A stretch of DNA of 38,701 bases from Shigella phage ESh8: sequence record ON528721. The stretch is one strand, 5' to 3'. Positions within the stretch are counted from its first letter, which is position 1. Every line of letters starts with the position of its first letter. The notes under the pieces are model-generated. The model made no database searches, had not been told where the DNA came from, and saw only the letters and a program-made list of their open reading frames with translations. Shown here one piece after another: positions 1 to 38,701 of the stretch. Both the position numbers and the translations under genes were made by a program.

Positions 1-1182
1 AACTCTGCTGCTGCCGCTAAGGTCTCAGAGACCAACGCTAAGGCCTCCGAGGAGAGAGCAATCACTGAGGCGAGCAAGCTGGGAAACATGAATGACTTTG
101 CTGGTACAATCGACAAGGTTGAAGGTGTAAACGTGTGGTTCAAAGGGACACTCGTTACTACCCAGAACATCACCGGAGGTGGGCTTATTTCCACAGGCCA
201 CGCTAATATTGGTAAAGGTCTTGCGGTTCAGGAGAATGGTACTTTCGGTATCGACTTAACAGTCCAGCGCGACATTTATGGAAATCGTAACATGACAGTC
301 GCTGGTAACTCTTGGTTGCAGGGAGGTATTAACCAGTCGGCAGCCTCCACCGTGTATAACCAGCTGTATCGCCTTCACCTGAGCAATACGCCAATGCACG
401 TAGGGAACCGTCAAGGTGTCCACATTGGATGGAACGAGTCGAACGCTAGAGGTGAAGCTGTCTTTTTGAATAACCAAGGTGGTGGTGATGGTGGGTTCGT
501 GTTCCGTACAGTTAACGCCGCCAACTCAGTTGAGAAGGGTCGTGTCGATTTTACTCAGGACGGTAACATCTACGCGAATCGCCTACAGGTTCGTTCCGGT
601 GCCAGAATTGAGGGGAACAACAACATCGTAGGTCAGTACCTCTACGCAGGAATGGGCACCGCGACACTAAACCCGGATGGGAACCTTAGCGGCGGTGTGT
701 GGAACAACGTTGGTGGAAACCTTTGGGGAATGCTCCACGACAACTACAGGTTCGCCAAACCTCCTGCTGGTGTCCGGCTGTACACAGGCCGTGGCAGGGA
801 CTACATTGAGGGTAACGTTGATGGTACATCCGTTGGGTTCCGCTGGTTCCAGTCTGACAGAAGGCTTAAAGAGAACCTCAAGGTTGTTCGCTCTGCTGAT
901 GATATGCTCAATATTATCCGCTCGTATATTCCGGTTTCCTATAAATATAAGGACTCTGAGTACGTTGACAACCGTGGGAAGACTGTTACTGTCACCGGTA
1001 AGAACTCTCGTGCTGGTTTCATTACTCAGGACTTGATTCGAATCTGGCCAGAGGCGGTTGATATAATGAGCGACGGTATGCAGTCTCCAGACCCTAACCA
1101 GATTATTGGCGGACTGATGCTGCTTGTTAAGAACCTAGATGAACGTGTTCAGGCGCTTGAATCTAAACTTATGACAGACTAA
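1..1182 (+). CDS. 17: Tail fiber protein gp17, C-terminal portion (5' end cut by window start; open in frame 1 from nt 1). Contains divergent receptor-binding region and a C-terminal intramolecular chaperone-like domain (approx 853..1182)
   Basis: No stop in frame 1 from nt 1 to 1182; preceded logically by T7-like gp17 N-terminus at window end; position immediately upstream of holin 17.5; C-terminal motif WFQSDRRLKENL typical of peptidase S74 / endosialidase-chaperone domains. Confidence 0.85.
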   Translation, partial: NSAAAAKVSETNAKASEERAITEASKLGNMNDFAGTIDKVEGVNVWFKGTLVTTQNITGGGLISTGHANIGKGLAVQENGTFGIDLTVQRDIYGNRNMTVAGNSWLQGGINQSAASTVYNQLYRLHLSNTPMHVGNRQGVHIGWNESNARGEAVFLNNQGGGDGGFVFRTVNAANSVEKGRVDFTQDGNIYANRLQVRSGARIEGNNNIVGQYLYAGMGTATLNPDGNLSGGVWNNVGGNLWGMLHDNYRFAKPPAGVRLYTGRGRDYIEGNVDGTSVGFRWFQSDRRLKENLKVVRSADDMLNIIRSYIPVSYKYKDSEYVDNRGKTVTVTGKNSRAGFITQDLIRIWPEAVDIMSDGMQSPDPNQIIGGLMLLVKNLDERVQALESKLMTD

Positions 1183-1193
1183 GGAGGTGTTAA

Positions 1194-1397
1194 ATGTTAT
1201 CCTTCGACTTCAACAATGAGGTCGTTAAGGCTGCGCCTATTGTTGGCACAGGGGTCGCTGATGGGGCGGCCCGACTCTTTTGGGGACTATCGTTAAACGA
1301 ATGGTTCTACGTTGCAGCTATCGCCTACACAGTGGTTCAGATTGGTGCCAAGGTAGTCGATAAGATGATTGACTGGAAACGTGCAAACAAGGAGTAA
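1194..1397 (+). CDS. 17.5: Class II holin (gp17.5), 67 aa
   Basis: 67 aa, hydrophobic segments, strong RBS TAAGGAGGT, position between tail fiber and gene 18 exactly as in T7. Confidence 0.9.
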   Translation: MLSFDFNNEVVKAAPIVGTGVADGAARLFWGLSLNEWFYVAAIAYTVVQIGAKVVDKMIDWKRANKE

Positions 1398-1400
1398 CCT

Positions 1401-1667
1401 ATGAGCGACAAGACTTTAATCAAGCTGCTGGAGATGCTAGACACGGAGATGGCACAGCGTATGCTTGCTGACCTCCAGAGCGAGGAACGCCGAACGCCGC
1501 AGCTTTACAACGCAATCGGCAAACTGTTAGACCGCCATAAGTTCCAAATCAGTAAGCTGACCCCGGATGAGAACATCCTTGGCGGTCTCGCGGCTGGTCT
1601 GGAAGACTACAACAAAGTGGTCGGCCCTAATGGTCTGACTGATGATGAGACTATCACGCTACAGTAA
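1401..1667 (+). CDS. 18: Terminase small subunit / DNA maturation protein A (gp18), 88 aa
   Basis: Size and position match T7 gp18 (89 aa); RBS AAGGAG. Confidence 0.85.
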   Translation: MSDKTLIKLLEMLDTEMAQRMLADLQSEERRTPQLYNAIGKLLDRHKFQISKLTPDENILGGLAAGLEDYNKVVGPNGLTDDETITLQ

Positions 1668-1673
1668 GTGACA

Positions 1674-1712
1674 TACTCAAGGTTCTCCACGCGGGAGCCT
1701 TTATGGATGTTA
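1674..1712 (+). promoter_or_regulatory. RNase III-type processing hairpin (R18.5-like)
   Basis: Motif ACTCAAGG-stem-loop-CCTTTATGGAT shared with 8 other intergenic sites in this window. Confidence 0.55.
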
Positions 1713-1755
1713 TTTGGTGCATCTACGTGAAATCTGAAAATCGATGGGAGGTGTT

Positions 1756-2208
1756 ATGCTAAAACTTTTACGCAGCGCACTCCCTTGGGTACTCGCCGGG
1801 ACACTCTTTATGGGTGGCTGGCACTTAGGGTCAACCCATGAGAGAGCAAACTGTAAGGAGGTAATCCAAAATGAATACATTGCGAAAACAAAAGCAACCG
1901 CAGCAACTCAGGCAGAGGTCAGTCGGGTATCCCGTGAGTACCAAGAAGAGATTGCAGCCATTGAAGGCAGCACTGATAGGATGCTTAATGACCTGCGTAG
2001 TAATAATAAGCGGCTGTCAGTCCGCATCAAGACCCTTACCGGACTACCAGAAGATAACGGTAGATGCGAGTTTAATGGTCGAGCCGAACTACACGAGTCA
2101 GATGCTAAGCGTATTATCGGAATAACCCAAGCTGCTGATGCTCACGTAAGAGCGCTCCAGCGTACTATTAAGGAGATGCAGAATGAGCGACACCCAAGCA
2201 AACCGTAA
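1756..2208 (+). CDS. 18.5: Rz-like i-spanin (gp18.5); ORF track starts at 1744 but ATG 1756 better placed behind GGGAGG
   Basis: N-terminal TM segment then coiled-coil-like sequence; position before terminase large subunit; contains embedded Rz1-like ORF in +1 frame. Confidence 0.85.
1871..2125 (+). CDS. 18.7: Rz1-like o-spanin lipoprotein (gp18.7) embedded in a different frame within 18.5
   Basis: 84 aa, signal peptide with lipobox-like IISGC, proline-rich mature part, fully nested in Rz ORF as in T7. Confidence 0.8.
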   Translation: MNTLRKQKQPQQLRQRSVGYPVSTKKRLQPLKAALIGCLMTCVVIISGCQSASRPLPDYQKITVDASLMVEPNYTSQMLSVLSE

Positions 2209-3946
2209 TGCGCTAATCATTGCGCAGCTTAAGGGTGACTTCGTGGCCTTCCTGTTCGTATTGTGGAAGGCTTTGGCCCTCCCGCCGCCGACTAAGTGTC
2301 AGATTGATATGGCCCGGTGTCTGGCTAACGGAGACAACAAGAAGTTTATCCTACAGGCTTTCCGTGGTATCGGTAAGTCATTCATCACCTGTGCGTTCGT
2401 TGTGTGGACGTTATGGCGTGACCCTCAGTTGAAGATACTAATTGTCTCTGCATCCAAAGAACGTGCGGACGCTAACTCCATCTTCATCAAGAACATCATT
2501 GACCTGCTGCCCTTCTTGGCTGAGCTAAAGCCTCGCCCCGGTCAGCGTGACTCTGTGATTAGTTTCGATGTTGGCCCTGCCAAGCCTGACCACTCTCCGT
2601 CTGTGAAGTCGGTGGGTATCACTGGTCAGTTGACTGGTAGTCGTGCTGATATCATCATAGCGGATGACGTTGAGATTCCGTCTAACTCCGCAACTCAAGG
2701 TGCCCGTGAGAAGCTGTGGACTCTGGTGCAGGAATTTGCCGCACTGCTGAAACCGCTGCCGACTTCTCGCGTTATCTACCTTGGTACGCCTCAAACCGAA
2801 ATGACCTTGTACAAGGAACTCGAAGATAACCGTGGGTACACCACAATCATCTGGCCTGCGCTCTATCCGCGTAGCCGTGAGGAAGACCTGTACTATGGCG
2901 ACCGTCTGGCCCCGATGCTCCGCGAAGAGTTCAACGATGGGTTCGAGATGCTCCAAGGTCAACCGACTGACCCCGTGCGCTTCGATATGGAAGACCTGCG
3001 TGAGCGTGAGTTGGAATACGGTAAGGCTGGCTTCACTTTGCAGTTCATGCTCAACCCGAACCTGAGTGATGCCGAGAAGTACCCCTTACGCCTCCGTGAC
3101 GCTATCGTGTGCGGTCTGGACTTCGAGAAAGCCCCAATGCATTACCAGTGGCTTCCGAACCGTCAGAATCGCAATGAAGAGCTACCTAACGTGGGCCTTA
3201 AGGGTGATGATATTCATAGCTATCATTCGTGCAGCCAGAACACTGGACAGTACCAGCAGCGCATCATCGTGATCGACCCGAGTGGTCGCGGTAAGGATGA
3301 GACTGGTTACGCAGTGTTATTCACCCTGAATGGCTACATCTATCTGATGGAAGCTGGCGGGTTCCGCGATGGTTATTCCGATAAGACCCTTGAGTCCCTC
3401 GCTAAGAAAGCGAAGCAGTGGAAGGTTCAGACAGTGGTCTTCGAGAGTAACTTCGGGGATGGTATGTTTGGTAAGGTATTCAGCCCTGTGCTCCTGAAAC
3501 ACCATGCAGCCTCTATGGAAGAGATTCGTGCTCGTGGTATGAAGGAACTACGCATTTGTGATACGCTGGAGCCTGTACTCTCTACGCACCGCCTTGTGAT
3601 TCGTGACGAGGTGATTCGTGAGGACTACCAGACTGCCCGTGACGCTGATGGCAAGCATGATGTTCGCTATTCGCTGTTCTACCAGTTGACCCGTATGGCT
3701 CGTGAGAAGGGCGCTGTGGCCCACGATGACCGACTTGATGCACTAGCATTGGGTGTGGAGTTCTTACGCTCTACGATGGAACTGGACGCCGTGAAGGTGG
3801 AGGCTGAGGTGCTTGAGGCGTTCTTAGAGGAACACATGGAGCACCCAATCCATTCGGCTGGTCACGTAGTTACCGCTATGGTTGACGGGATGGAACTCTA
3901 TTGGGAGGATGACGATGCGAATAGCAACAGGTTCATTGACTGGTAG
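2183..3946 (+). CDS. 19: Terminase large subunit / DNA maturation protein B (gp19), 587 aa
   Basis: 587 aa (T7 gp19 586 aa); Walker A-like GIGKS; start overlaps 18.5 end. Confidence 0.95.
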
Positions 3947-4026
3947 TTATGCATATTGAGTGCATAAGGAAGCATTGAGACCACGGATGGTCACTTTAAG
4001 AAACTCCTTAAGAATCAATGAGTTTG

Positions 4027-4049
4027 AATTAACCCTCACTAAAGGGAGA
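4027..4049 (+). promoter_or_regulatory. T3-type phage RNAP promoter (phiOR-like), AATTAACCCTCACTAAAGGGAGA
   Basis: Exact match to T3 promoter consensus; located after gene 19 before 19.5 as phiOR in T7. Confidence 0.9.
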
Positions 4050-4190
4050 GAGGGGACTTAAAGCTATTATATAGGTTAGTCATTCAGGTTATGCAATGAC
4101 CCTTTATGCACTTTAAGTCTACCTCTATGATTGGTGATATTATCATTGTATAATCACCCTACCTTAGAGCAACTGAAAGGAGGTGGCTCA

Positions 4191-4340
4191 ATGTTACGCT
4201 TGCTGATTGCCCTGCTGCGTCATAGAGTCACTTGGCGATTTCTTCTGGTACTTACTGCTACCCTTGGGTACGCAGGTCTTACTGACCACCTCGGTCAACT
4301 GGAAGTGGCCTTTTGCTCTATACTCTCTTGTGGGGATTAA
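4191..4340 (+). CDS. 19.5: gp19.5-like small protein, 49 aa (ORF track start 4131 is upstream of RBS; ATG 4191 preferred)
   Basis: MLRLLIALLRHRVTWRFLLVL... closely resembles T7 gp19.5 (49 aa); RBS AAAGGAGG. Confidence 0.8.
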   Translation: MLRLLIALLRHRVTWRFLLVLTATLGYAGLTDHLGQLEVAFCSILSCGD

Positions 4341-4419
4341 ATTATTGTTGATGACCGACAAGCGGCTCTGAGGGATTCGTAGGTATAGTTTCACTACACC
4401 AACTCATCCCTGTAGAGTC

Positions 4420-4910
4420 AACCCTAAAGGTTATACCTAAAGATGCCCTGTAGTTCGTAATGGTCTTACAGGGTCTTCTGGTGTCTCCTAGCTATCCCTT
4501 CGGGATGCACCTATGGTCTCACCTATGGTGTGGCCTTACCTAAAGTGGTTGCCTAAAGAGACCCTTTAAGTATTTACCACAAAAATCTGAATGGGTATCT
4601 CACAGTTCAAGAACCCAAAGTACCCCCATAGCCCTCCTAAAGCCACCTAAAGCCAGCCCTACCCCTAGGGTTTAACCTTCGGTTAACCTTGGGTATCTCC
4701 TCAAGTGGCCTATAGGATAGCCTAAAGTGTTGCCTAAAGTCAATACCTAAAGAGGTGGCTGCCTATTGGAGACTTAAAGAGTGTCCTAGTGTACCAGTTC
4801 GATAGTACATCTCTATGCGTCCCTATCTGTTAGCCTCATAAAGTAAACCCTAAAGCCGCCACCTAAAGACCAGACCTAAAGCCATCACCTAAAGAGTGCC
4901 GCTATCTTAA
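4420..4910 (+). repeat. Array of dispersed CCTAAAG-type heptamer repeats (about 13 copies) spanning the genome-end region
   Basis: CCTAAAG or ACCTAAAG seen at approx 4423, 4437, 4549, 4562, 4648, 4658, 4729, 4743, 4756, 4849, 4865, 4878, 4893; same motif class as T7 end-region short repeats. Confidence 0.8.
4598..4828 (+). repeat. Probable terminal repeat (single collapsed copy; boundaries approximate)
   Basis: Starts with TCTCACAGTTCAAGAACCCAAAGTACCCCCATAG, matching remembered T3/T7 left-end sequence pattern; lies between right-end genes (19.5) and left-end early promoters. Confidence 0.5.
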
Positions 4911-4976
4911 AGACAACCAGACCGATAGACCCATTGTTAACCTGTAGTGATGCCCTGTAGTTATCTGTAGTCAATT

Positions 4977-4999
4977 CAATTACCCTCACTAAAGGGAAT
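4977..4999 (+). promoter_or_regulatory. Variant phage RNAP promoter (phiOL-like), CAATTACCCTCACTAAAGGGAAT
   Basis: Core CCCTCACTAAAGGGA present, one A missing in upstream AATTAA box; position left of host promoters as phiOL in T7. Confidence 0.6.
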
Positions 5000-5052
5000 A
5001 AGGGATACTTAAAGAGGGAATAAGGGATTTAATAAAAGATTTAAATTAATGG

Positions 5053-5082
5053 TTGACTTTAAGTAACCCTTAAGGCTATTAT
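5053..5082 (+). promoter_or_regulatory. Host sigma70-type early promoter (A1-like): TTGACT - 18 nt - TATTAT
   Basis: -35 TTGACT at 5053, -10 TATTAT at 5077. Confidence 0.7.
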
Positions 5083-5181
5083 TCATCACGTCAACGGGAC
5101 AACGGCCTTAAAGCCACTCCCTGAGATACCGGAGTCAACCGGATAAGTAGACAGCCTGATAAGTCATACGAAAAACAGGCA

Positions 5182-5211
5182 TTGACAACATGAAGTAACA
5201 TGCAGTAAGAT
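5182..5211 (+). promoter_or_regulatory. Host sigma70-type early promoter (A2-like): TTGACA - 18 nt - TAAGAT
   Basis: Sequence TTGACAACATGAAGTAACATGCAGTAAGATAC is the remembered T7 A2 promoter. Confidence 0.8.
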
Positions 5212-5315: not shown

Positions 5316-5530
5316 GTACCACATGAAAGACACCGAGTGTCGTAGGTGTAAAAACGCGACATAGTGGATAGATGGCGAAAGCACAAGCGACCACGATAAT
5401 AAAGAGCTTGTCGCACTTATAACGCAAGTGACGGCTAACACTGAAATAGCCTCGGCTCAACGAAACTGTAGCCTAAAGTTCTTTAACAATCTGGATAATA
5501 GCTCTTGAGTGTACCGATGTATAAGCGAAT

Positions 5531-5602: not shown

Positions 5603-6061
5603 ATGATTTTCACTAAAGAGCCTGCTAACGTCTTCTATGTACTGGTGTCAGCTTTCCGTTCTAACCTTGATGATGAGGTGAACATGAGCCGCCACCGCCA
5701 CATGGTTAGCACTTTACGTGCCGCACCGGGTCTTTATGGCTCCGTTGAGTCAACCGATTTGACCGGGTGCTATCGTGAGGCAATCGCAAGCGCACCGACT
5801 GAGGAAAAAACGGTTCGTGTACGCTGCAAGGACAAGGCGCAGGCACTCAATGTTGCACGATTAGCTTGCAATGAGTGGGAGCAAGATTGCGTACTGGTAT
5901 ACAAATCACAGACTCACACGGCTGGTCTGGTGTACGCTAAAGGTATCGACGGGTATAAGGCTGAACGCCTGCCGGGTAGCTTCCAAGAGGTTCCTAAAGG
6001 CGCACCACTGCAAGGCTGCTTTACGATTGACGAGTTCTGTCGCCGCTGGCAAGTACAGTAA
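5603..6061 (+). CDS. 0.3: S-adenosylmethionine-degrading enzyme (T3 SAMase, anti-restriction), 152 aa
   Basis: 152 aa; sequence MIFTKEPANVFYVLVSAFRSNL... recognised as T3 gp0.3 SAMase; first early gene after host promoters. Confidence 0.9.
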   Translation: MIFTKEPANVFYVLVSAFRSNLDDEVNMSRHRHMVSTLRAAPGLYGSVESTDLTGCYREAIASAPTEEKTVRVRCKDKAQALNVARLACNEWEQDCVLVYKSQTHTAGLVYAKGIDGYKAERLPGSFQEVPKGAPLQGCFTIDEFCRRWQVQ

Positions 6062-6065
6062 GTGA

Positions 6066-6134: not shown

Positions 6135-6335
6135 ATGAGTAAACTTCTGGCAACCTCCAAAATCCAAGGACAATGCACTGTAACGCTGCGTGAGTATTAC
6201 CACGGGTCGATGGGATGCACCTATGTTGTGCGCTACGGCAAACAGGTCACGCACTGGGTAAACCCGATTTTAGCACAAGAGGATTATCAAGCCTGTGTGA
6301 TACACCAAGCAACATGTGCGGGCTGGAATGATTGA
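6135..6335 (+). CDS. Hypothetical early protein, 66 aa, Cys/His-containing
   Basis: ORF in early region; ATG 6135 chosen because the ORF-track GTG at 6090 lies inside the RNase III hairpin; weak RBS. Confidence 0.5.
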   Translation: MSKLLATSKIQGQCTVTLREYYHGSMGCTYVVRYGKQVTHWVNPILAQEDYQACVIHQATCAGWND

Positions 6336-6354
6336 CATTACAGGAGGATTAGCA

Positions 6355-6513
6355 ATGGCTATACTTATCACTATCGCACTCTTTGCGGTCGCTGGCTGGT
6401 ACTCTGAGTCACGCAAGGCCGCTCGCTATCATCGCAAGATGGTTAAACTCATGGAACACTTGGACGCAGAAGGGCGAGGCCGCGAGGCTATCGAACTGGT
6501 GAAACACGCATGA
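6355..6513 (+). CDS. Hypothetical early small membrane protein, 52 aa
   Basis: Strong RBS CAGGAGGA 7 nt upstream of ATG 6355; N-terminal hydrophobic helix AILITIALFAVAGWY. Confidence 0.6.
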   Translation: MAILITIALFAVAGWYSESRKAARYHRKMVKLMEHLDAEGRGREAIELVKHA

Positions 6514-8058: not shown

Positions 8059-10713
8059 ATGAACATCATCGAAACTATCGAAAAGAATGACTTCTCCGAA
8101 ATCGAACTGGCTGCTATCCCGTTCAACACGCTGGCAGACCATTACGGTAGCGCATTGGCGCGTGAACAACTGGCTTTAGAGCATGAGTCTTATGAGCTAG
8201 GCGAGCGCCGCTTCCTCAAGATGCTTGAGCGTCAAGCGAAAGCTGGTGAGATTGCAGACAACGCAGCCGCTAAGCCATTACTCGCTACGCTTCTCCCTAA
8301 GTTAACCGCACGCATCGTTGAGTGGCTCGAAGAGTACGCCTCTAAGAAAGGCCGCAAGCCTGTAGCCTATGCACCACTCCAATCACTCAAGCCGGAGGCG
8401 TCCGCGTTTATCACGCTCAAGGTCATCCTTGCGTCACTGACCAGCACGAACATGACAACAATTCAGGCCGCTGCTGGTATGCTGGGGAAAGCCATTGAGG
8501 ACGAGGTACGTTTCGGTCGCATCCGTGACCTCGAAGCGAAGCACTTCAAGAAACACGTTGAGGAACAACTCAACAAGCGCCACGGGCAAGTCTACAAGAA
8601 AGCCTTTATGCAGGTGGTTGAGGCAGACATGATTGGTCGCGGGCTGCTGGGAGGTGAGGCGTGGTCTAGCTGGGACAAGGAAACCACGATGCACGTAGGG
8701 ATTCGCCTGATTGAAATGCTCATTGAGTCCACGGGTCTGGTGGAATTGCAGCGCCACAACGCAGGTAACGCAGGCTCTGACCATGAGGCACTACAACTGG
8801 CCCAAGAGTACGTCGATGTGTTAGCGAAGCGTGCAGGCGCTCTGGCGGGCATCTCTCCGATGTTCCAGCCGTGTGTCGTACCGCCGAAACCTTGGGTATC
8901 AATCACAGGTGGCGGCTATTGGGCTAACGGTCGCAGGCCTTTGGCACTCGTTCGCACCCACTCTAAGAAGGGACTGATGCGCTATGAGGATGTTTACATG
9001 CCAGAAGTTTACAAGGCGGTCAACATCGCACAGAACACCGCATGGAAAATCAACAAGAAAGTTCTTGCGGTTGTCAATGAGATTGTGAACTGGAAGAATT
9101 GCCCGGTCGCAGACATTCCATCACTGGAGCGCCAAGAGTTACCGCCTAAGCCGGACGACATTGACACCAACGAGGCAGCACTCAAGGAGTGGAAGAAAGC
9201 CGCCGCTGGTATCTACCGCTTGGACAAGGCACGAGTGTCTCGCCGTATCAGCTTAGAGTTCATGCTGGAGCAGGCCAACAAGTTCGCAAGTAAGAAAGCA
9301 ATCTGGTTCCCTTACAACATGGACTGGCGCGGTCGTGTGTACGCTGTACCGATGTTCAACCCGCAAGGCAACGACATGACCAAGGGTCTCCTAACCCTCG
9401 CTAAAGGCAAGCCAATCGGTGAGGAAGGGTTCTACTGGCTGAAAATCCACGGTGCGAACTGTGCGGGTGTCGATAAGGTTCCATTCCCTGAGCGCATCGC
9501 GTTCATCGAGAAGCACGTAGACGACATTCTGGCTTGCGCTAAAGACCCAATCAATAACACTTGGTGGGCCGAGCAGGATTCACCTTTCTGTTTCCTCGCG
9601 TTCTGCTTCGAGTATGCAGGCGTTGCGCACCACGGTCTGAGCTACAATTGCTCTCTGCCGCTGGCGTTCGATGGGTCTTGCTCTGGTATCCAGCACTTCT
9701 CCGCGATGCTGCGCGATGAGGTAGGCGGTCGTGCGGTTAACCTTCTGCCAAGCGAAACCGTGCAGGACATTTACGGCATCGTTGCGCAGAAAGTAAACGA
9801 GATTCTCAAACAGGATGCAATCAACGGCACACCTAACGAGATGATTACCGTGACCGACAAGGACACCGGGGAAATCTCAGAGAAGCTCAAGCTGGGAACC
9901 TCAACGCTGGCGCAACAGTGGCTGGCATATGGTGTAACCCGTAGCGTGACTAAACGTTCGGTCATGACGCTGGCTTACGGTTCCAAGGAGTTCGGCTTTC
10001 GTCAACAGGTACTGGACGACACCATTCAGCCTGCGATTGACAGCGGTAAGGGCTTGATGTTCACCCAACCGAACCAAGCGGCTGGCTATATGGCTAAGCT
10101 GATTTGGGACGCGGTGAGCGTGACCGTAGTCGCAGCGGTTGAGGCGATGAACTGGCTCAAGTCTGCCGCTAAGCTGCTGGCTGCTGAGGTCAAGGACAAG
10201 AAGACCAAGGAGATTCTGCGCCACCGTTGCGCGGTTCACTGGACTACGCCGGACGGCTTCCCGGTCTGGCAGGAATACCGCAAGCCACTCCAGAAGCGTC
10301 TTGATATGATTTTCTTAGGGCAATTCCGTCTGCAACCGACGATTAATACCCTCAAGGATTCAGGCATTGACGCACACAAGCAGGAGTCTGGCATCGCGCC
10401 TAACTTTGTTCACTCACAGGACGGTAGCCACCTACGCATGACAGTCGTTTATGCTCACGAGAAGTATGGCATTGAGTCCTTTGCGCTCATCCATGACAGC
10501 TTTGGGACTATCCCGGCAGACGCTGGTAAGCTCTTTAAGGCTGTGCGTGAAACGATGGTTCTCACCTACGAGAACAACGATGTGCTGGCAGACTTCTATG
10601 ACCAGTTTGCAGACCAGCTACACGAGACCCAACTGGACAAGATGCCTCCGCTTCCGAAGAAAGGAAATCTGAACCTGCAAGACATTCTCAAGTCTGACTT
10701 TGCCTTTGCATAA
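8059..10713 (+). CDS. 1: Single-subunit DNA-dependent RNA polymerase (T3-type), 884 aa
   Basis: 884 aa (T3 RNAP length); near-identical to remembered T3 RNAP sequence; C-terminus FAFA; matches the T3-type promoters found genome-wide. Confidence 0.98.
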   Translation: MNIIETIEKNDFSEIELAAIPFNTLADHYGSALAREQLALEHESYELGERRFLKMLERQAKAGEIADNAAAKPLLATLLPKLTARIVEWLEEYASKKGRKPVAYAPLQSLKPEASAFITLKVILASLTSTNMTTIQAAAGMLGKAIEDEVRFGRIRDLEAKHFKKHVEEQLNKRHGQVYKKAFMQVVEADMIGRGLLGGEAWSSWDKETTMHVGIRLIEMLIESTGLVELQRHNAGNAGSDHEALQLAQEYVDVLAKRAGALAGISPMFQPCVVPPKPWVSITGGGYWANGRRPLALVRTHSKKGLMRYEDVYMPEVYKAVNIAQNTAWKINKKVLAVVNEIVNWKNCPVADIPSLERQELPPKPDDIDTNEAALKEWKKAAAGIYRLDKARVSRRISLEFMLEQANKFASKKAIWFPYNMDWRGRVYAVPMFNPQGNDMTKGLLTLAKGKPIGEEGFYWLKIHGANCAGVDKVPFPERIAFIEKHVDDILACAKDPINNTWWAEQDSPFCFLAFCFEYAGVAHHGLSYNCSLPLAFDGSCSGIQHFSAMLRDEVGGRAVNLLPSETVQDIYGIVAQKVNEILKQDAINGTPNEMITVTDKDTGEISEKLKLGTSTLAQQWLAYGVTRSVTKRSVMTLAYGSKEFGFRQQVLDDTIQPAIDSGKGLMFTQPNQAAGYMAKLIWDAVSVTVVAAVEAMNWLKSAAKLLAAEVKDKKTKEILRHRCAVHWTTPDGFPVWQEYRKPLQKRLDMIFLGQFRLQPTINTLKDSGIDAHKQESGIAPNFVHSQDGSHLRMTVVYAHEKYGIESFALIHDSFGTIPADAGKLFKAVRETMVLTYENNDVLADFYDQFADQLHETQLDKMPPLPKKGNLNLQDILKSDFAFA

Positions 10714-15118: not shown

Positions 15119-15531
15119 GTTCCTTCCGTTCTGGACTTGAAGATAAAGTCCACAAACAACTGGAGGCTCGTGGGGTAAAGGCTGAATATGAAATGTGGAA
15201 GATTCCATATGTTGTACCAGCCAGTAATCACACGTACCGACCAGATTTTATTTTACCCAATGGAATCATTGTCGAGACCAAGGGACTGTGGGAAGCTGAT
15301 GACCGGAAGAAGCACTTGCTAATCCGTGAGCAGTATCCTGAACTGGACATTCGTCTGGTGTTCTCTTCGAGTCGTACCAAAATATACAAAGGGTCTCCAA
15401 CTTCTTACGCCGAGTTCTGCGAGAAGAAAGGGATTCTCTTTGCCGACAAACTGATACCCGTCGAGTGGCTCAAGGAGCCTAAGCGGGACGTACCGTGGGA
15501 GAAACTAATTCGTGTAAAGGAGAAAAAGTAA
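15082..15531 (+). CDS. 3: Endonuclease I (Holliday junction resolvase) gp3, 149 aa
   Basis: 149 aa as T7 gp3; position; RBS GGAGGA. Confidence 0.9.
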   Translation: MAGYGAKGIRKVGSFRSGLEDKVHKQLEARGVKAEYEMWKIPYVVPASNHTYRPDFILPNGIIVETKGLWEADDRKKHLLIREQYPELDIRLVFSSSRTKIYKGSPTSYAEFCEKKGILFADKLIPVEWLKEPKRDVPWEKLIRVKEKK

Positions 15532-27159: not shown

Positions 27160-27431
27160 TTCCCGACCCCACTGGAGTTACTCTTAGTCAGAAGACTATG
27201 AGCTTAGTCGTTGGGGCTTCTAAAGCCCTGACTGCTACGGTAACTCCGGCTGATGCAGTACAGACAGTGACCTTTACGTCTTCCGATGCGAAGATTGCTA
27301 CGGTCGATGCCTCTGGTACTGTAACTGCTGTGGGCGCTGGCTCCGCTGACATCACTGCTACTACTGTGAATGGCCTGACGGCTGTCTGCAAGGTCACTGT
27401 GAAAGCAGTAGAGCCTCCCGTAGAAGGCTAA
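27147..27431 (+). CDS. 10B: Minor capsid protein 10B C-terminal extension, reached by -1 ribosomal frameshift at slippery heptamer C_CCA_AAG (27141..27147); 94 aa extension with Ig-like (Big_2-like) domain
   Basis: X_XXY_YYZ slippery site in 10A frame 4 codons before 10A stop; -1 frame open to 27431; extension has TATVTPADA...VTFTSSDAKIATVDASGTVTAVGAGSADITATTVNGLTAVCKVTV pattern. Confidence 0.75.
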   Translation, partial: GVGVIPDPTGVTLSQKTMSLVVGASKALTATVTPADAVQTVTFTSSDAKIATVDASGTVTAVGAGSADITATTVNGLTAVCKVTVKAVEPPVEG

Positions 27432-27470
27432 GGTCTTTACCGGGGATTTACTTTCCTTCATTACTTTATG

Positions 27471-27512
27471 AACCCCTTGGGTGCCCTCTGAGGGTATCTG
27501 AGGGGTTTTTTG
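27471..27512 (+). terminator. Late terminator (Tphi-like) hairpin plus U-tract
   Basis: AACCCCTTGGGTGCCCTCTGAGGGTATCTGAGGGGTTTTTTG, very similar to T7 Tphi. Confidence 0.85.
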
Positions 27513-27543: not shown

Positions 27544-28134
27544 ATGCGCTCTTATGAGATGAACATTGAGACCGCAGAAGAGCTATCAGCCGTCAACGAC
27601 ATTCTGGCTTCCATCGGTGAGCCACCAGTATCAACCCTTGAGGGTGATGCGAATGCTGACGTTGCGAATGCTCGACGTGTACTCAATAAGATTAACCGAC
27701 AGATTCAATCACGAGGATGGACATTCAATATTGAGGAAGGTGTGACCCTTCTACCGGATGCGTTCTCTGGTATGATTCCATTTAGCTCTGACTACCTGTC
27801 CGTAATGGCAACCAGCGGTCAGACCCAATATGTCAACCGTGGTGGCTATCTCTATGACCGCTCTGCGAAGACCGACAGATTCCCTTCTGGTGTTCAGGTC
27901 AACCTGATTCGTCTGAGAGAGTTCGATGAGATGCCTGAGTGCTTCCGTAACTACATCGTCACCAAGGCTTCACGCCAGTTCAACAACCGATTCTTCGGTG
28001 CGCCGGAGGTAGACGGAGTGTTGCAGGAAGAAGAGCAGGAAGCGTGGCGTGCGTGCTTCGAGTACGAACTAGACTACGGCAACTACAACATGCTGGACGG
28101 TGACGCATTCACCTCTGGTCTACTTAACCGCTAA
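27544..28134 (+). CDS. 11: Tail tubular protein A gp11, 196 aa
   Basis: 196 aa, same as T7 gp11; position. Confidence 0.95.
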
Positions 28135-28149
28135 TCATAAGGAGGCTCT

Positions 28150-30555
28150 ATGGCTCTCATTAGTCAATCAATCAAGAACCTCAAGGGTGGTATCAGCCAA
28201 CAGCCAGATATTCTCCGGTTCGCTGAACAAGGTAGCGTGCAGATTAACGGTTGGTCTTCTGAGTCCGAGGGTCTCCAGAAGCGCCCACCGATGATTCACC
28301 TTAAGACCCTTGGCCCTGCTGGGTATGTGGGTGCGCAACCTTACGTGCATCTTATCAACCGTGATGAGTTCGAGCAGTATTTCGTGGTGTTCACTGGTGA
28401 AGACATTAAGGTGTTCGACCTCGATGGTAAGGAGTACCAAGTACGTGGAGACCGCTCTTATGTACGAACAGCCAACCCACGGGAAGACCTTCGGATGGTA
28501 ACGGTGGCTGACTATACCTTTGTTACTAACCGCAAGGTGGTTGTGCAGAGTAACGACCAATCGGTCAACCTTCCGGGCTTTAAAGACCAAGGTGATGCGC
28601 TGATTAATGTTCGTGGTGGGCAATATGGGCGTAGACTCTCAATCGAGTTCAACGGGGCTGAGCGTGCTGCTATTCAACTACCAGACGGCTCACAACCAGC
28701 ACACGTCAATGAGGTTGACGGTCAGGCCATCGCTGAGAAGCTGGCGGCTCAGTTGCGGAATAACCTAGGGAACCCAAACAATGAACAAAACCCAAATAAG
28801 TGGCGCTTCAACGTTGGCCCCGGATTCATCCATATCCTTGCGCCAAATAACGATAACGTTTGGGGACTACAGACTAAGGATGGTTACGCAGACCAGCTAA
28901 TCAACCCTGTAACCCATTACACTCAGTCGTTCCAGAAGTTGCCTATTAACGCTCCAGATGGGTACATTGTGAAGATTGTTGGTGATACCTCAAAGACTGC
29001 CGACCAGTATTACGTTAGGTTCGACCTCAACCGTAAGGTATGGGTAGAAACAATCGGCTGGAACACAAGGACTCACCTGCACTACCACACGATGCCTTGG
29101 GCGCTTGTACGTGCTTCTGACGGGAACTTTGACTTCAAGTACCTTGAGTGGGGTGCTCGTACTGTGGGTGATGATACAACTAACCCATACCCATCGTTTA
29201 CCGGACAGACAATCAATGATATTTTCTTCTTCCGTAACCGTTTGGGGTTCCTTAGTGGGGAGAACATCATCTTGTCTCGCACCTCGAAATACTTCAACTT
29301 CTTCCCGGCCTCCGTGTCAAACTACTCCGACGATGACCCAATCGACGTTGCGGTTAGCCACAACCGGGTGTCAACCTTGAAGTATGCCGTTCCGTTCTCC
29401 GAAGAGTTGCTCCTGTGGTCTGACCAAGCGCAGTTCGTTCTGACAGCCTCTGGTATCCTTTCGAGTCGCTCCGTAGAGTTGAACCTTACGACTCAGTTTG
29501 ATGTGCAAGACAGGGCACGCCCACATGGTGTAGGACGTAATGTATACTTTGCATCACCTCGCGCTTCCTTCACATCCATTAACCGATACTATGCGGTACA
29601 GGATGTAAGCTCTGTGAAGAACGCAGAGGACATGACGGCTCACGTTCCGAACTACATACCGAATGGGGTATTCAGTATATCGGGTACAACCGCTGAGAAC
29701 TTCGCGGCTATCCTTACGAGCGGAGCACCGAACCGGGTGTATATCTACAAGTTCCTCTATATTGATGAAGAAATCAGGCAGCAGTCGTGGTCTCATTGGG
29801 ACTTTGGGGACAACGTTACGGTGTTTGCAGCACAGGTGATAAACTCAACAATGACTGTATTGATGAGCAATGAACATGCTGTGTGGATGGGACGCTTGCA
29901 CTTCACGAAGAACTCCATAGACATTCCGGGAGAACCTTACAGATTATACATCGACGCTAAGAGGAAATACACCATCCCTGCCGGGACGTATAATGATGAT
30001 ACCTACCAGACGTCCATAAGCCTCGCAGCGATTTATGGGATGAACTTCACTAAGGGTAAAGTGTCTGTGGTCTTCCCTGATGGAAAGATTATAGAGGTAG
30101 ACCCGCCAATCAACGGTTGGAGCAGTGACCCGGTGTTACGACTTGATGGGAACCAAGAGGGCCAAGTGGTTTACATTGGGTTCAACATCCCATTCACGTA
30201 TACGTTCTCGAAGTTCCTCATTAAGAAGACTGCTGAGGACGGCTCGACGGCTACCGAGGATATTGGTCGCTTACAGCTTCGGCGTGCGTGGGTAAACTAT
30301 GAGGACTCAGGAGCGTTCACCATCCGTGTGAACAACCTGTCCCGTGAGTTCATCTACACAATGGCTGGCGCTCGTTTGGGTTCTGACAATCTGCGTGTTG
30401 GCAGGTCGAACATTGGCACAGGGCAGTACCGCTTCCCGGTGGTTGGCAATGCGCAGACGAACCTAGTAACCATCGAGTCCGATGCGTCTACCCCATTGAA
30501 CATCATTGGGTGCGGCTGGGAGGGGAACTACCTTCGTCGTTCTTCTGGCATTTAA
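28150..30555 (+). CDS. 12: Tail tubular protein B gp12, 801 aa
   Basis: 801 aa (T7 gp12 794 aa); position; RBS AAGGAGG. Confidence 0.95.
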   Translation: MALISQSIKNLKGGISQQPDILRFAEQGSVQINGWSSESEGLQKRPPMIHLKTLGPAGYVGAQPYVHLINRDEFEQYFVVFTGEDIKVFDLDGKEYQVRGDRSYVRTANPREDLRMVTVADYTFVTNRKVVVQSNDQSVNLPGFKDQGDALINVRGGQYGRRLSIEFNGAERAAIQLPDGSQPAHVNEVDGQAIAEKLAAQLRNNLGNPNNEQNPNKWRFNVGPGFIHILAPNNDNVWGLQTKDGYADQLINPVTHYTQSFQKLPINAPDGYIVKIVGDTSKTADQYYVRFDLNRKVWVETIGWNTRTHLHYHTMPWALVRASDGNFDFKYLEWGARTVGDDTTNPYPSFTGQTINDIFFFRNRLGFLSGENIILSRTSKYFNFFPASVSNYSDDDPIDVAVSHNRVSTLKYAVPFSEELLLWSDQAQFVLTASGILSSRSVELNLTTQFDVQDRARPHGVGRNVYFASPRASFTSINRYYAVQDVSSVKNAEDMTAHVPNYIPNGVFSISGTTAENFAAILTSGAPNRVYIYKFLYIDEEIRQQSWSHWDFGDNVTVFAAQVINSTMTVLMSNEHAVWMGRLHFTKNSIDIPGEPYRLYIDAKRKYTIPAGTYNDDTYQTSISLAAIYGMNFTKGKVSVVFPDGKIIEVDPPINGWSSDPVLRLDGNQEGQVVYIGFNIPFTYTFSKFLIKKTAEDGSTATEDIGRLQLRRAWVNYEDSGAFTIRVNNLSREFIYTMAGARLGSDNLRVGRSNIGTGQYRFPVVGNAQTNLVTIESDASTPLNIIGCGWEGNYLRRSSGI

Positions 30556-33881: not shown

Positions 33882-33899
33882 CAGTGATAAGGAGGCTCC

Positions 33900-36800
33900 A
33901 TGAGCTACGATAAGAACAAACCTAGCGAGTTCGATGGGTTATTTCAAAAAGCGGCAGACAAACATGGGGTCTCCTATGACCTGCTTCGTAAATTAGCATT
34001 CAATGAGTCCAGCTTCAATCCAAAGGCCAAATCACCAACTGGCCCGAAGGGTCTCATGCAGTTCACCAAGGGTACAGCCACTGCGCTTGGCCTAAAGGTT
34101 ACTGACGATGATGACGATGACCGTTACAACCCTGAGTTGGCTGTGGATGCAGCCGCTCGTCACCTGAGTGACCTCATTCGGAAGTACGATGGGGATGAAC
34201 TCAAAGCTGCCTTGGCGTATAATCAGGGCGAGGGGCGCAACGGTGCTCCACAGATACAGGCTTATGACAAAGGTGATTGGGCTTCAATCTCTGAGGAAGG
34301 TCGTAACTATATGCGTAACCTGATGGACGTAGCCAACAGTCCTCGCAAGGGGGACTTGGAGGCGTTCGGCGGTATCACCCCAAAGGCTAAGGGCATTCCA
34401 TCGGGGGATGCATTTGCTGGAATCGGGAAGAAGCAGACGGTAGGAACCGACCTGCCGGAGTCAACTGGATTCAAAGTGGAGGGTAAAGAGCAGAAAGCAC
34501 CTAACGTGCCTTATGCTAAGGACTTTTGGGAAAAGACTGGAACAACACTGGACGAGTTTAACTCACGCTCTACCTTCTTCGGAATTGGAGATGCAACAAG
34601 TGCGGAGCTTCACAACTCTGTACTTGGAGTTGCTTTCCGTGCAGCCCGTAGCGACGATGGTTTTGATTTGTTCAAGGACACCATTACGCCTACCCGTTGG
34701 AATAGCCATACGTGGACTCCAGAAGAGCTAGAGCGAATCCGTAAGGAAGTGAAGAACCCCGCGTACATCAACGTAGTCACTGGAGGCTCTCCTGAGAATC
34801 TGGACGCCCTCATTAAGATGGCGAATGACAACTACGAGATGGACGCACGGTCTGCCGATGCTGGTGTTGGTGCCAAACTTACTGCTGGTATCGTCGGTGC
34901 TGGTGTAGACCCGCTGAGTTACGTGCCGCTAGTAGGCGTAGCCGGGAAGGGTCTCAAGGTGGTTAACAAGGCTTTCATTGTGGGTACTCAAAGTGCTGGC
35001 CTCGCTGTTGCCTCTGAGGGTCTCCGTACATCAATCGCTGGTGGAGAAGCCCACTATGCTGATGCTGCTTTAGGTGGTCTGATGTTCGGTGCCGGGATGA
35101 GCGCAATCAGTGACGCTATCGCTGCTGGTATTCGCCGTTCCCGTGGGACTGAGGTTGTTAATGACTTCGCTCCTATGGCACACCGCTTGGAAGCCCGTGA
35201 GACCGCTCTGAACTCTGGTGGGGAAGACCTGACCCGTATGCCTAGCGAGAACCGTGTGTTCGACCGTGAGCACGCTGGCGTTGAGTATTCACCTCTGGAG
35301 ACCGAGCCGGGTGCCGTTGTGTTACCTCAAGGTCAAATCCTGAGCGACACCAACCCACTTAACCCTCAGACTCTTAGCGAGTTCGAGGCGGTCAACCCTG
35401 AGCGTGCCGCTCGTGGTATCTCTTTGGGTGGTTTCACTGAGATTGGCTTGAAGACTCTCCGCTCTGAGAACCAGACTGTTCGCTCCATTGCGAGTGACCT
35501 TGTGCGTTCTCCGACAGGGATGGAATCAGGCTCTAACGGTAAGTTCGGTGCGACTGCTTCTGACATTAAGGAGCGGCTCCACGCGAACAATCAGCGCACC
35601 TACAATCAGCTTTATGATGCTGTGCGTACTGCAATGAAAGACCCTGAGTTCTCCACGGGTGGGGCCACAATGAGCCGTAAGGAAATCCGACAGGAAATCT
35701 ACAAGCGTGCAGCCTTGGCGATTGAGCGACCTGAGCTTCAAGCAAACCTGACAAAGGGTGAGCGGAACGTGATGAAAATCCTCAAGCAGCACTTTGACCT
35801 CAAACGTGAAATCATGGAGAACCCGTCAATCTTCGGCAACACCAAGGCGGTCAGTATCTTCCCCGGCTCACGCCACAAGGGAACCTACGTGCCAAACGTG
35901 TACGACCGAGCTATCAAGATTGAGATGGTTAAGCGTTACGGTAATGATGGCTTGCAGCGAGCAATCGCGGAGTCATGGTTGACGTCTTATCGTGCTCGTC
36001 CAGAAGTCAAGGCGAGGGTCGATGAGTACCTGATGGAACTTAACGGTCTCAAATCCGTGCAGGAAGTTACGCCTGAGATGGTGCAGAAGCACGCGATGGA
36101 CAAGGCGTATGGTATTTCACACACTGACCAGTTCTCTGCCTCCTCTGTCATTGAGGATAACATTGAGGGTCTGGTGGGTATCGAGAACAACAACTTCTTG
36201 GAAGCCCGTAACATGTTCGACAGTGACATGGCGGTGACTCTCCCTGATGGTAACACGTTCTCTGTGAATGACCTGCGTACCTATGACATGGCTGAAATTC
36301 TGCCTGCATACGACCGACGAGTAGATGGTGATGTTGCAATCATGGGTGGTTCCGGTAAGACTACCAAAGACCTGAAAGATGAAATCATGGCGCTGGATAA
36401 GCAGTCAGAGGGCAACGGCACATTGAAAGGTGAAGTGGAAGCCCTCAAGGACACCGTGAAGATTCTGACTGGTCGTGCCCGTAGGAACCCGGAAGGCGCT
36501 TGGGGTACAGCCCTGCGCTCCGTCAATGACCTCACGTTCTTTGCTAAGAACGCCTATATGGGCGCACAGAACGTTACTGAAATCGCTGGTATGCTGGCGA
36601 AAGGTAACGTCTCTGCGATAACTCACGGAATACCCATGATTAACGATTGGGTCAACCGTGGTAAACCGCTTCGTGCCTCTGAGATTAAGGAGCTACACGG
36701 GATGGTGTTCGGTAAGGAACTAGACCAACTAATCCGTCCGGGACGTGAAGACCACGTGCGCCGACTCCGGGAGTCTACGGACACCAGCGCTGCGGTTGCC

Positions 36801-37862
36801 AATGTGGTCGGTACGATTCGTTTCGGTACTCAAGAGTTGGCTGCACGCTCTCCTTGGACAATGCTCCTGAACGGAACATCAAACTACATTCTTGATGCTG
36901 CCCGTCAGGGTGTGCTTGGGGATGTGGCTGGAGCGGCCCTTGCTGGGAAAGCCTCTAAGTTCGGTAAGGCAAACTACCTTAAGTCTGCCTCTATCAGCCC
37001 TGAGCAGTGGAATGGAATCAAGCAGTTGTTCAGAGACCATGCGACTCGTGGAGAAGACGGTAAGTTCACCATTCGTGACAAACAGGCTTTCGCTAACGAC
37101 CCTCGTTCAATGGACTTGTGGCGACTGGCCGACAAGGTGGCGGATGAGACTATACTGCGCCCTCACAAGGTTTCCTCACAGGACTCCAAAGCGTTCGGTG
37201 CAGGGGTGAAGATGGTGATGCAGTTTAAGAACTTCGTCATCAAGTCCCTTAACTCCCGGTTCGTCCGTAGCTTCTACGAGGCAACGAAGAACAACCGTGC
37301 GTTAGACCAAGCGTTGACTCACATCATCTCCTTGGGTCTAGCTGGTGGTTACTACGTTGGGCAGGCGCACCTTAAGGCTGCGAGTCTACAGGAGCACAAA
37401 CGTAAGGAGTACCTTAAGAACGCCCTTGACCCTAAGATGATTGCTCATGCGTCAATCTCTCGTAGTTCACACTTAGGCTCGCCAGTGAGTATCTACGACA
37501 TGTTCGCTGGGATGGTTGGTAGCGATACCTATAAGTACACCCGCTCTACGGTACTCCCTAAAGAGTCCGAGAAGCGTGACCCTACCAAGGCAGTGACAGG
37601 TAGACAGGTGGCTTCAACTATCGCAGGTGCAGTTGGTGAGCAGGTTCCGGGTTTAGGTTTTGTTGGCTCTGTGGGTGCAACAGCTATTAACGCCGCTTCC
37701 CTGCTGTCTTCTCCAAACAAGGCTACCGCTCTGGAGTTCCGTACAGGACTCTTCAACACCTCTCGTGAGTTGATTCCTAATGACCCGCTATCGCAGCAAC
37801 TCATTATGAAAATCTACGAGGCCAACGGTATCCGCGTAAAGGAGACGCCGAAGAAACAATAA
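33900..37862 (+). CDS. 16: Internal virion (core) protein D gp16 with N-terminal lytic transglycosylase domain, 1320 aa
   Basis: 1320 aa (T7 gp16 1318 aa); N-terminal SLT-like motifs LAFNESSFNP...GLMQF. Confidence 0.95.
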   Translation: MSYDKNKPSEFDGLFQKAADKHGVSYDLLRKLAFNESSFNPKAKSPTGPKGLMQFTKGTATALGLKVTDDDDDDRYNPELAVDAAARHLSDLIRKYDGDELKAALAYNQGEGRNGAPQIQAYDKGDWASISEEGRNYMRNLMDVANSPRKGDLEAFGGITPKAKGIPSGDAFAGIGKKQTVGTDLPESTGFKVEGKEQKAPNVPYAKDFWEKTGTTLDEFNSRSTFFGIGDATSAELHNSVLGVAFRAARSDDGFDLFKDTITPTRWNSHTWTPEELERIRKEVKNPAYINVVTGGSPENLDALIKMANDNYEMDARSADAGVGAKLTAGIVGAGVDPLSYVPLVGVAGKGLKVVNKAFIVGTQSAGLAVASEGLRTSIAGGEAHYADAALGGLMFGAGMSAISDAIAAGIRRSRGTEVVNDFAPMAHRLEARETALNSGGEDLTRMPSENRVFDREHAGVEYSPLETEPGAVVLPQGQILSDTNPLNPQTLSEFEAVNPERAARGISLGGFTEIGLKTLRSENQTVRSIASDLVRSPTGMESGSNGKFGATASDIKERLHANNQRTYNQLYDAVRTAMKDPEFSTGGATMSRKEIRQEIYKRAALAIERPELQANLTKGERNVMKILKQHFDLKREIMENPSIFGNTKAVSIFPGSRHKGTYVPNVYDRAIKIEMVKRYGNDGLQRAIAESWLTSYRARPEVKARVDEYLMELNGLKSVQEVTPEMVQKHAMDKAYGISHTDQFSASSVIEDNIEGLVGIENNNFLEARNMFDSDMAVTLPDGNTFSVNDLRTYDMAEILPAYDRRVDGDVAIMGGSGKTTKDLKDEIMALDKQSEGNGTLKGEVEALKDTVKILTGRARRNPEGAWGTALRSVNDLTFFAKNAYMGAQNVTEIAGMLAKGNVSAITHGIPMINDWVNRGKPLRASEIKELHGMVFGKELDQLIRPGREDHVRRLRESTDTSAAVANVVGTIRFGTQELAARSPWTMLLNGTSNYILDAARQGVLGDVAGAALAGKASKFGKANYLKSASISPEQWNGIKQLFRDHATRGEDGKFTIRDKQAFANDPRSMDLWRLADKVADETILRPHKVSSQDSKAFGAGVKMVMQFKNFVIKSLNSRFVRSFYEATKNNRALDQALTHIISLGLAGGYYVGQAHLKAASLQEHKRKEYLKNALDPKMIAHASISRSSHLGSPVSIYDMFAGMVGSDTYKYTRSTVLPKESEKRDPTKAVTGRQVASTIAGAVGEQVPGLGFVGSVGATAINAASLLSSPNKATALEFRTGLFNTSRELIPNDPLSQQLIMKIYEANGIRVKETPKKQ

Positions 37863-37880
37863 ACCCTCACTAAAGGGAGA
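37858..37880 (+). promoter_or_regulatory. T3-type phage RNAP promoter (phi17), AATAAACCCTCACTAAAGGGAGA
   Basis: Consensus core; overlaps gene 16 stop; followed by GAGAGAGG...CCTCTTCTCTC inverted repeat. Confidence 0.9.
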
Positions 37881-37933
37881 GAGGTCACATTCTGGCCTCT
37901 TCTCTCTTAATGCTAATTTACAAAGGAGGTCAC

Positions 37934-38701
37934 ATGGCTACAACTATTAAGACCGTGATGACTTACCCGCTGGATGGCTCCACTACGGACTTCAATATTC
38001 CGTTTGAGTATCTGGCTCGTAAGTTCGTCCGAGTGACACTTATCGGCGTTGACCGAAAGGAACTCATCTTGAATCAAGACTATCGTTTTGCGACTAAGAC
38101 CACAATCTCCACAACGAGAGCATTGGGGCCAGCGGACGGTTATACTTTGATTGAAATCCGTCGATTCACCTCCGCTACAGACCGTCTGGTTGACTTTACC
38201 GACGGCTCTATCCTGCGGGCATATGATTTGAACATCTCGCAGGTTCAGACACTCCACGTTGCTGAGGAAGCCCGTGACCTTACCACTGATACAATTGGCG
38301 TTAACAATGATGGGAACTTGGATGCTCGTGGTCGTCGTATCGTTAACGTTGCGGATGCGCAAGATGTAGGTGATGCAGTCAACTTAGGCCAAATCCAACG
38401 GTGGAACGACTCTGCGTTGAACTCTGCGAATCGAGCGAAACAGGAAGCTGACCGTGCTACCGCTCGTGCAAACGATGCGAACAACTCTGCGAACGCATCT
38501 GCAAGCTCTGCAAGCTCTTCTGCTGGGTCTGCTGAGTTATCAAAACAGTGGGCCGTTAAGGAAACCGCTGTGGAGCCAAATCTAGAATCATCACGAACCT
38601 ACGCGCTTCACTCCATGTCATACCGGAATGAGGCTAAAGGCTCTGCCGACCGTGCCGCTGTTTCCGAGACCAACGCTAAGGACTCCGAAGTTTCCGCTGC
38701 T
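37934..38701 (+). CDS. 17: Tail fiber protein gp17, N-terminal portion (3' end cut by window end; 256 codons, no stop)
   Basis: MATTIKTVMTYPLDGSTTDFNIPFEYLARKFVRVTLIGVDRKEL... matches T7 gp17 N-terminal tail-attachment domain; RBS AAAGGAGGT. Confidence 0.95.
   Translation, partial: MATTIKTVMTYPLDGSTTDFNIPFEYLARKFVRVTLIGVDRKELILNQDYRFATKTTISTTRALGPADGYTLIEIRRFTSATDRLVDFTDGSILRAYDLNISQVQTLHVAEEARDLTTDTIGVNNDGNLDARGRRIVNVADAQDVGDAVNLGQIQRWNDSALNSANRAKQEADRATARANDANNSANASASSASSSAGSAELSKQWAVKETAVEPNLESSRTYALHSMSYRNEAKGSADRAAVSETNAKDSEVSAA

Follow-up and report, generated by a model that had tools for sequence, protein, structure and literature searches.

A T3-like genome in permuted orientation: the split tail-fibre gene of Shigella phage ESh8

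Introduction

Among the closest described relatives of Shigella phage ESh8, the subject of this report, are the Yersinia phages phiYe-F10 (NC_047755) and phiYeO3-12 (AJ251805). Like ESh8, both have colinear genomes with T3-type promoters, one of which precedes gene 17, and a tail-fibre protein, gp17, whose C-terminal part contains an S74 chaperone domain. Most structural proteins of phiYeO3-12 are 97-100% identical to those of ESh8, whereas the receptor-binding part of its gp17 is only 66% identical. The three phages also differ in gene content. phiYe-F10 carries an Ocr-like gene 0.3 where ESh8 encodes a SAM-cleaving enzyme, and phiYeO3-12 has genes 1.45, 5.3 and 13.5, optional endonuclease genes that are the only phiYeO3-12 genes without a homologue in ESh8 by tblastn. 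Unlike this pair, ESh8 includes an HNH gene resembling gene 2.8 and an allele of gene 5.5 that is of the T7 type.

Phage T3 (NC_003298) belongs to the same genus as ESh8, Teetrevirus, and shares with it the promoter consensus, a SAM-cleaving 0.3 gene and an RNA polymerase of 884 amino acids (aa). T3 gp1.7 and gp4 are 97-99% identical to their ESh8 counterparts, while gp15 and gp16 are only 67-69% identical. Unlike ESh8, T3 has gene 5.3, its gp17 aligns with that of ESh8 over the first 288 residues only and is without the S74 domain region, and before gene 17 it has an unused T7-type promoter sequence in place of the T3-type promoter of ESh8.

The source of ESh8 was sewage. In Table 2 of the paper describing it, ESh8 is listed as a 38,701 bp Teetrevirus genome (ON528721) with phiYe-F10 as its nearest relative; MiSeq 2x300 reads were assembled de novo with Newbler 2.7, and terminal repeats are not mentioned (PMC9686686, Antibiotics 2022). 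The window analysed here is the whole ON528721 record of 38,701 nt, which begins and ends within gene 17, the tail-fibre gene. An initial annotation, made from the sequence without database searches, had read it as one complete, circularly permuted T3-like genome with its origin inside gene 17. Here, we compare the window with related genomes and consider how a contig in this orientation could have arisen.

Results and discussion

Gene order and the split gene 17

All annotated T3 and phiYeO3-12 proteins were used to query the circularised window by tblastn. The matching genes are all on one strand, the + strand of the record, and are colinear from 0.3 to 19.5. Read from position 1, they run from the C-terminal part of 17 through 17.5, 18, 18.5/18.7, 19, 19.2, 19.3 and 19.5 to the terminal repeat, which is followed by the left-end genes 0.3, 0.45, 0.6, 0.65, 0.7 and 1 and the remaining genes up to 16 and the N-terminal part of 17. 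This is the order that the initial annotation had described.

Gene 17 starts with an ATG at 37934, preceded by a ribosome-binding site and by phi17, a T3-type promoter located after gene 16 (37860-37880). It then runs off the end of the window after 768 stop-free nt, or exactly 256 codons (37934-38701). At the other end of the record, frame 1 is open from nt 1, is in frame with position 38701, and contributes the 393 C-terminal codons and a stop (1-1182, with TAA at 1180-1182). Both open ends had been predicted, and when 38701 is joined to 1 they become a single 649-aa open reading frame (ORF), gp17, which the record cuts between codons 256 and 257. Alignment to T3-like genomes after rotation had been proposed as a check, and BLAST of the rotated window was colinear from end to end, with 96% aligned to phiYeO3-12 and 92% to T3.

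Based on this colinearity, on the junction and on the single terminal repeat, both described below, we conclude that the window is almost certainly a complete genome of a T3-like lytic podophage of the genus Teetrevirus that was permuted in assembly, probably by repeat collapse. The permuted orientation is an ordinary assembly convention and not new biology, and the ESh8 genome has already been published. The value of recognising that the record is complete but awkwardly oriented is practical. The tail-fibre gene is the main determinant of host range, and with its two parts at opposite ends of the record it would be overlooked, or annotated as truncated, if the sequence were used as deposited.

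The terminal repeat and the origin of the permuted contig

T7-type phages package their DNA from concatemers in which there is one repeat copy per junction. To locate the repeat in ESh8, the left and right 600 nt of T3 and phiYeO3-12 were aligned to the window, and a multiple alignment was made. The left-end alignments begin at 4598 and the right-end alignments end at 4824, defining a direct terminal repeat of 227 nt (4598-4824) that is 92.6% identical to the 231 nt repeat of T3; the repeat of phiYeO3-12 is 232 nt. Both boundaries are conserved, with GGGTA/TCTCA on the left and GTCCCT/ATCTG on the right, where the slash marks the boundary. The initial annotation had the single copy and the start position right, but its end position of approximately 4828 is 4 nt beyond the one found by alignment.

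No second copy of the repeat was found in the window, and the window ends do not overlap one another. The one copy is flanked on one side by unique right-end sequence and on the other by unique left-end sequence, and a lone copy in this position has the appearance of a collapsed repeat. During de novo assembly of short reads, those from the two copies of the terminal repeat would merge, and the assembly graph would then close to a circle. To output this circle as a linear contig, the assembler would break it at an arbitrary position, which in ESh8 is the boundary of codons 256 and 257 in gene 17. If so, the packaged genome, of approximately 38,928 bp (38,701 + 227), could be restored in the correct orientation, with an intact 649-aa gp17, by making 4598 the first position of the record and appending the 4598-4824 sequence once more after its last base. 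By analogy with T3 and phiYeO3-12, whose genomes are annotated as linear molecules carrying a direct repeat at either end, ESh8 virions would contain linear DNA flanked by two identical 227-bp copies, and the alignments would place the physical ends at 4598 and 4824.

A circle could also be generated from reads of replicating head-to-tail concatemers, without collapse of the repeat copies of the virion. A concatemer junction has the layout seen at 4233-5186, namely right-end sequence, one repeat copy and left-end sequence, and unpackaged DNA may be present in crude lysates. However, phage isolates were the source of the ESh8 DNA that went into restriction analysis and sequencing (PMC9686686), and no more than collapse of the 227-bp repeat would be needed to close the graph. 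As both routes yield the same contig, they are indistinguishable here. We consider concatemer reads an unlikely source and infer that the circle was closed by repeat collapse.

The junction in gene 17

The 180 nt centred on the join (90 nt on either side) align without a gap to six independent genomes, those of ESh7, ESh9 (circularised), phiYeO3-12, phiCFP-1, vB_Yep_15 and IME305. The match to Yersinia phage vB_Yep_15 has 179/180 identical bases. For a 1,400-nt query spanning the junction, ESh7, vB_Yep_15 and phiCFP-1 each gave a single segment whose length was the same in the query as in the record, and the alignment of the rotated window to phiYeO3-12 passes through the junction within one 12.5-kb BLAST segment. 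Aligned with seven other gp17 proteins, the joined gp17 is likewise gapless between residues 256 and 257, and three of the seven, from vB_Yep_15, ESh7 and ESh9, have precisely its length of 649 aa. As the junction is gapless in six genomes and gp17 is gapless at the same point, the window ends are shown by these alignments to be adjacent and joined in frame, as had been claimed, and the cut has neither removed nor duplicated any sequence.

The cut falls between two copies of a 29-nt repeat (repeat family D14) that are 90% identical. The first copy is at 38660-38688, with a 16-mer core at 38666-38681, and the second, with its core at 28-43, is at 22-50, which is 63 nt (21 codons) downstream of the first across the join. 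Each copy encodes VSETNAK, so this peptide is found once on each side. The core 16-mer, GAGACCAACGCTAAGG, occurs at 28 and 38666 and nowhere else in the window. The initial annotation had remarked on the shared 16-mer and on a Ser/Ala-rich SETNAK peptide on both sides of the join, and had left it to be checked whether the number of repeats was real or an assembly artefact.

If it were an artefact, gene 17 sequence such as one or more 63-nt repeat units could have been lost or duplicated at the cut, and the window ends would not be adjacent. The location of the cut between two repeat copies would fit with this, as would the cut in the ESh9 record, which is just 36 nt away in the same region, where the assembler may misbehave. 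However, the six relatives that are gapless over the join all have exactly two copies at 63-nt spacing, three of them have a gp17 of the same length as that of ESh8, and the 2x300-nt reads are far longer than a 29-nt repeat. A missing repeat unit is very improbable and was rejected because of the gapless alignments to relatives and the equal gp17 lengths. The same two VSETNAK units are present in gp17 of all T3-like relatives compared. On the same comparisons, the two-copy arrangement is the norm for the family and not an assembly artefact, and the repeat count can be taken as real.

Headful packaging of truly circularly permuted, terminally redundant DNA without fixed ends, for which the sole argument is that there is no repeat at the contig's own ends, is the least credible alternative and was rejected, as the large terminase encoded by gene 19 (2183-3946; tblastn and Pfam terminase domains) is 99% identical to gp19 of phiYeO3-12 and 97% identical to gp19 of T3, both of which have fixed ends and short direct repeats in their annotations, and as the sequences at both terminal-repeat boundaries are conserved.

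Against the conclusion that ESh8 is a complete genome permuted by repeat collapse, the following can be held. First, the physical ends are set by alignment to relatives and not by reads, and the doubled coverage over 4598-4824 is a prediction. Second, nt 6 of the window is T (AACTCT), where all six of the relatives compared have G (AACTCG). The difference is synonymous (Ser) and, at 6 nt from the contig start, could be either real or a contig-end error. Third, the exact 649-aa joined gp17 has no match in the protein collection, though none would be expected, as gene 17 is split in the deposited record. Two further searches were uninformative on the join. A 45-mer across the junction, with and without N at nt 6, had no exact match in viral_contigs, and nt 1-51 of the window had none in genome_contigs, metagenome_contigs or viral_contigs.

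Record origins in related phages

ESh9 (ON528722), which comes from the same laboratory and assembler as ESh8, also has its record origin inside gene 17, at a point equivalent to window position 38665/38666. This is 36 nt from the ESh8 cut and exactly at the start of the first copy of the 16-mer. Other phages from the same study are cut elsewhere, ESh10 inside gene 1 and ESh12 inside gene 4. The ESh9, ESh10 and ESh12 records are flagged UNVERIFIED and carry their split genes as misc_features only. The origins of KP13MC5-2 (window 352/353) and HMGUsm2 (near window 38382) are also inside gene 17.

The possibility that gene 17 is a general hot spot for contig breaks was rejected. The junction query was split in only 3 of 98 matching records, and approximately 3.5 would be expected with random origins. 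ESh10 and ESh12 are also cut in other genes, and there is no general enrichment of origins in gene 17. The proximity of the ESh8 and ESh9 cuts is unlikely to be due to chance and remains suggestive. Both are in the repeat, at the boundary between the conserved and the variable, receptor-binding parts of gp17. The cut in gene 17 could therefore be non-arbitrary, if minority tail-fibre recombinants in the sewage lysates caused the assembly graph to branch there. We consider this improbable, in combination with the separate possibility that ESh8 is an unnamed species (see below), but if such recombinants exist, the individual lysates would be genuinely diverse in host range.

In ESh7 (ON528720), the sole annotation of gene 17 is a 753-nt misc_feature (27686-28438). 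The gene translates as an intact 649-aa ORF, and the under-annotation looks like a pipeline artefact and not a broken gene.

Mosaicism of the tail fibre

The joined gp17 has a complete domain set, with Pfam matches at residues 1-155 to Phage_T7_tail, the N-terminal domain of the T7 tail fibre, and at residues 541-609 to Peptidase_S74, an intramolecular chaperone domain. The S74 match begins with an SDRRLK motif, a putative self-cleavage site. The two ends of the protein have different relatives. Residues 1-150 (37934-38383) are 98.7% identical to those of phiYeO3-12, IME305 and ESh9, but only 82% identical to those of vB_Yep_15. Over residues 151-290, the identity to vB_Yep_15 is 99-100%, and over residues 291-649 it is 96%, while the shaft and receptor-binding part as a whole (38384-38701 plus 1-1182) is 66-87% identical to phiYeO3-12. 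Hence, gp17 itself is mosaic, with an N-terminal domain and a shaft/receptor-binding part that resemble different relatives.

The record for vB_Yep_15 (PV596791), whose gp17 is of the same length as that of ESh8, places the phage in Teseptimavirus. Given this placement and the 82% identity of the N-terminal domains, the part of gp17 that ESh8 and vB_Yep_15 share is a mosaic module.

Relationship to T3, T7 and the Yersinia phages

Whole-genome similarities were obtained with our own VIRIDIC-style calculation. ESh8 is most similar to phiYe-F10 (92.5%), followed by HMGUsm2 (91.6%), phiYeO3-12 and ESh10 (both 90.0%), ESh9 (89.0%) and T3 (80.9%), and its similarity to the seven Teetrevirus genomes other than T3 is 88.5-92.5%. 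The International Committee on Taxonomy of Viruses (ICTV) places the genus threshold at 70% or more genome-wide nucleotide similarity. ESh8 has a single-subunit RNA polymerase, T3-type promoters, colinear genes on one strand and genome similarities above 70%. By these sequence comparisons, it is assigned to Teetrevirus (Autographiviridae, Studiervirinae), and is nearer to the Yersinia-phage group than to T3. The description of ESh8 as T3-like was thus appropriate, but its nearest relatives are phiYe-F10 and phiYeO3-12 (90-92%), and not T3 itself. As ESh8 is less than 95% similar to every genome compared, it may count as a separate Teetrevirus species, as yet unnamed, with T7-type 2.8 and 5.5 modules.

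The T3 repertoire listed in the initial annotation, namely a SAMase 0.3 gene, an 884-aa RNA polymerase and the T3 promoter consensus, is present. Gene 0.3 (5603-6061) encodes a SAM-cleaving enzyme (SAMase; Pfam S-AdoMet_lyase, E = 6e-41) that is 99.3% identical to that of phiYeO3-12 and 98.0% identical to that of T3. Gene 1 (8059-10713) encodes the single-subunit RNA polymerase (884 aa; Pfam RNA_pol and RPOL_N), which is 99.2% identical to that of phiYeO3-12, 98.8% to that of T3 and 82.4% to that of T7. Fifteen T3-type promoters matching TTAACCCTCACTAAAGGGAGA were found, all on the + strand and colinear with the promoters of T3 and phiYeO3-12, where shuffled sequences would be expected to contain none. 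They include phiOR (4029-4049) and a phiOL-type promoter (4979-4999) that is 382 nt from the inferred left end and is colinear with phiOL of T3 (366-388) and of phiYeO3-12 (375-397). No T7-type promoter was found in the window within 3 mismatches.

The right-end genes 17.5 (holin), 18, 18.5/18.7, 19, 19.2, 19.3 and 19.5 (1194-4340) have 95-100% identity to those of phiYeO3-12, and the last of them, 19.5, was located by tblastn at 4191-4340. The last complete gene in the window is gene 16 (33900-37862; URY10989.1), and its 1,320-aa product is 98.3% identical to gp16 of phiYeO3-12. Both this product and the HNH protein described below match their ESh8 entries (URY10989.1 and URY10963.1) exactly, and the gp16 accession is the last one ahead of those of ESh9, in keeping with a record that ends in a cut gene 17. 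Elsewhere, affinities vary from gene to gene, with gp1.7 and gp4 closest to those of T3, and gp5, gp6, gp15 and gp16 closest to those of phiYeO3-12.

The T7 genes 0.3 (ocr), 0.4, 0.5, 1.4, 3.8, 4.1, 4.7, 5.3 and 7 have no homologue in the window, and the only match to T7 gp7.7 is the HNH gene at 14648, away from the position of gene 7.7. The gaps between genes 5 and 5.5, 6.7 and 7.3, and 7.3 and 8, which are the sites of T7 genes 5.3, 7 and 7.7, are just 19, 27 and 10 nt, respectively. The initial annotation had reported 5.3, 7 and 7.7 as T7-specific genes that are absent from their expected positions. Their absence was borne out, but 5.3 is not T7-specific. As T3 and phiYeO3-12 both have gene 5.3, lack of the gene characterises this lineage and not T3.

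Other mosaic segments and minor open reading frames

The HNH homing-endonuclease gene (14648-15118; 156 aa, URY10963.1; Pfam HNH_3, E = 7e-14) is located between genes 2.5 and 3. Its product is 43% identical to T7 gp2.8, which is encoded at the same position in T7, and there is no such gene at that position in T3 or phiYeO3-12. Gene 3, which adjoins it, is divergent (region 14648-15531), with 70% identity to T3, 78% to phiYeO3-12 and 80% to T7, while the neighbouring gp2.5 and gp3.5 are 97-99% identical to those of T3 and phiYeO3-12. From this pattern of identities, it looks as if the flanking sequence, gene 3, was transferred together with the endonuclease gene.

Gene 5.5 (20675-20974; Pfam Phage_T7_55) follows directly after gene 5, with no 5.3 between them. 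It is a T7-type allele, whose product is 91.9% identical to gp5.5 of T7 but only 52.5% identical to that of T3 and 44.6% to that of phiYeO3-12. By these identities, it is a short module of Teseptimavirus origin within a Teetrevirus backbone. In T7, the product of gene 5.5 counteracts the host protein H-NS.

Three shorter segments have no counterpart in some or all of the closest relatives. Approximately 100 nt of the early promoter region (5332-5438) aligns to none of T3, phiYeO3-12 and ESh9. Between genes 0.45 and 0.6, a 65-aa ORF with a GTG start (6316-6513) has no Pfam match and no counterpart in T3 or phiYeO3-12, and lies in a region that aligns to ESh9. Downstream of 10A, a segment at 27143-27471 is common to phiYe-F10 and KNP3 but has no alignment in T3, phiYeO3-12 or ESh9, and is another mosaic segment. 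It includes an ORF (27198-27431) in the -1 frame relative to 10A that could be the 10B frameshift extension.

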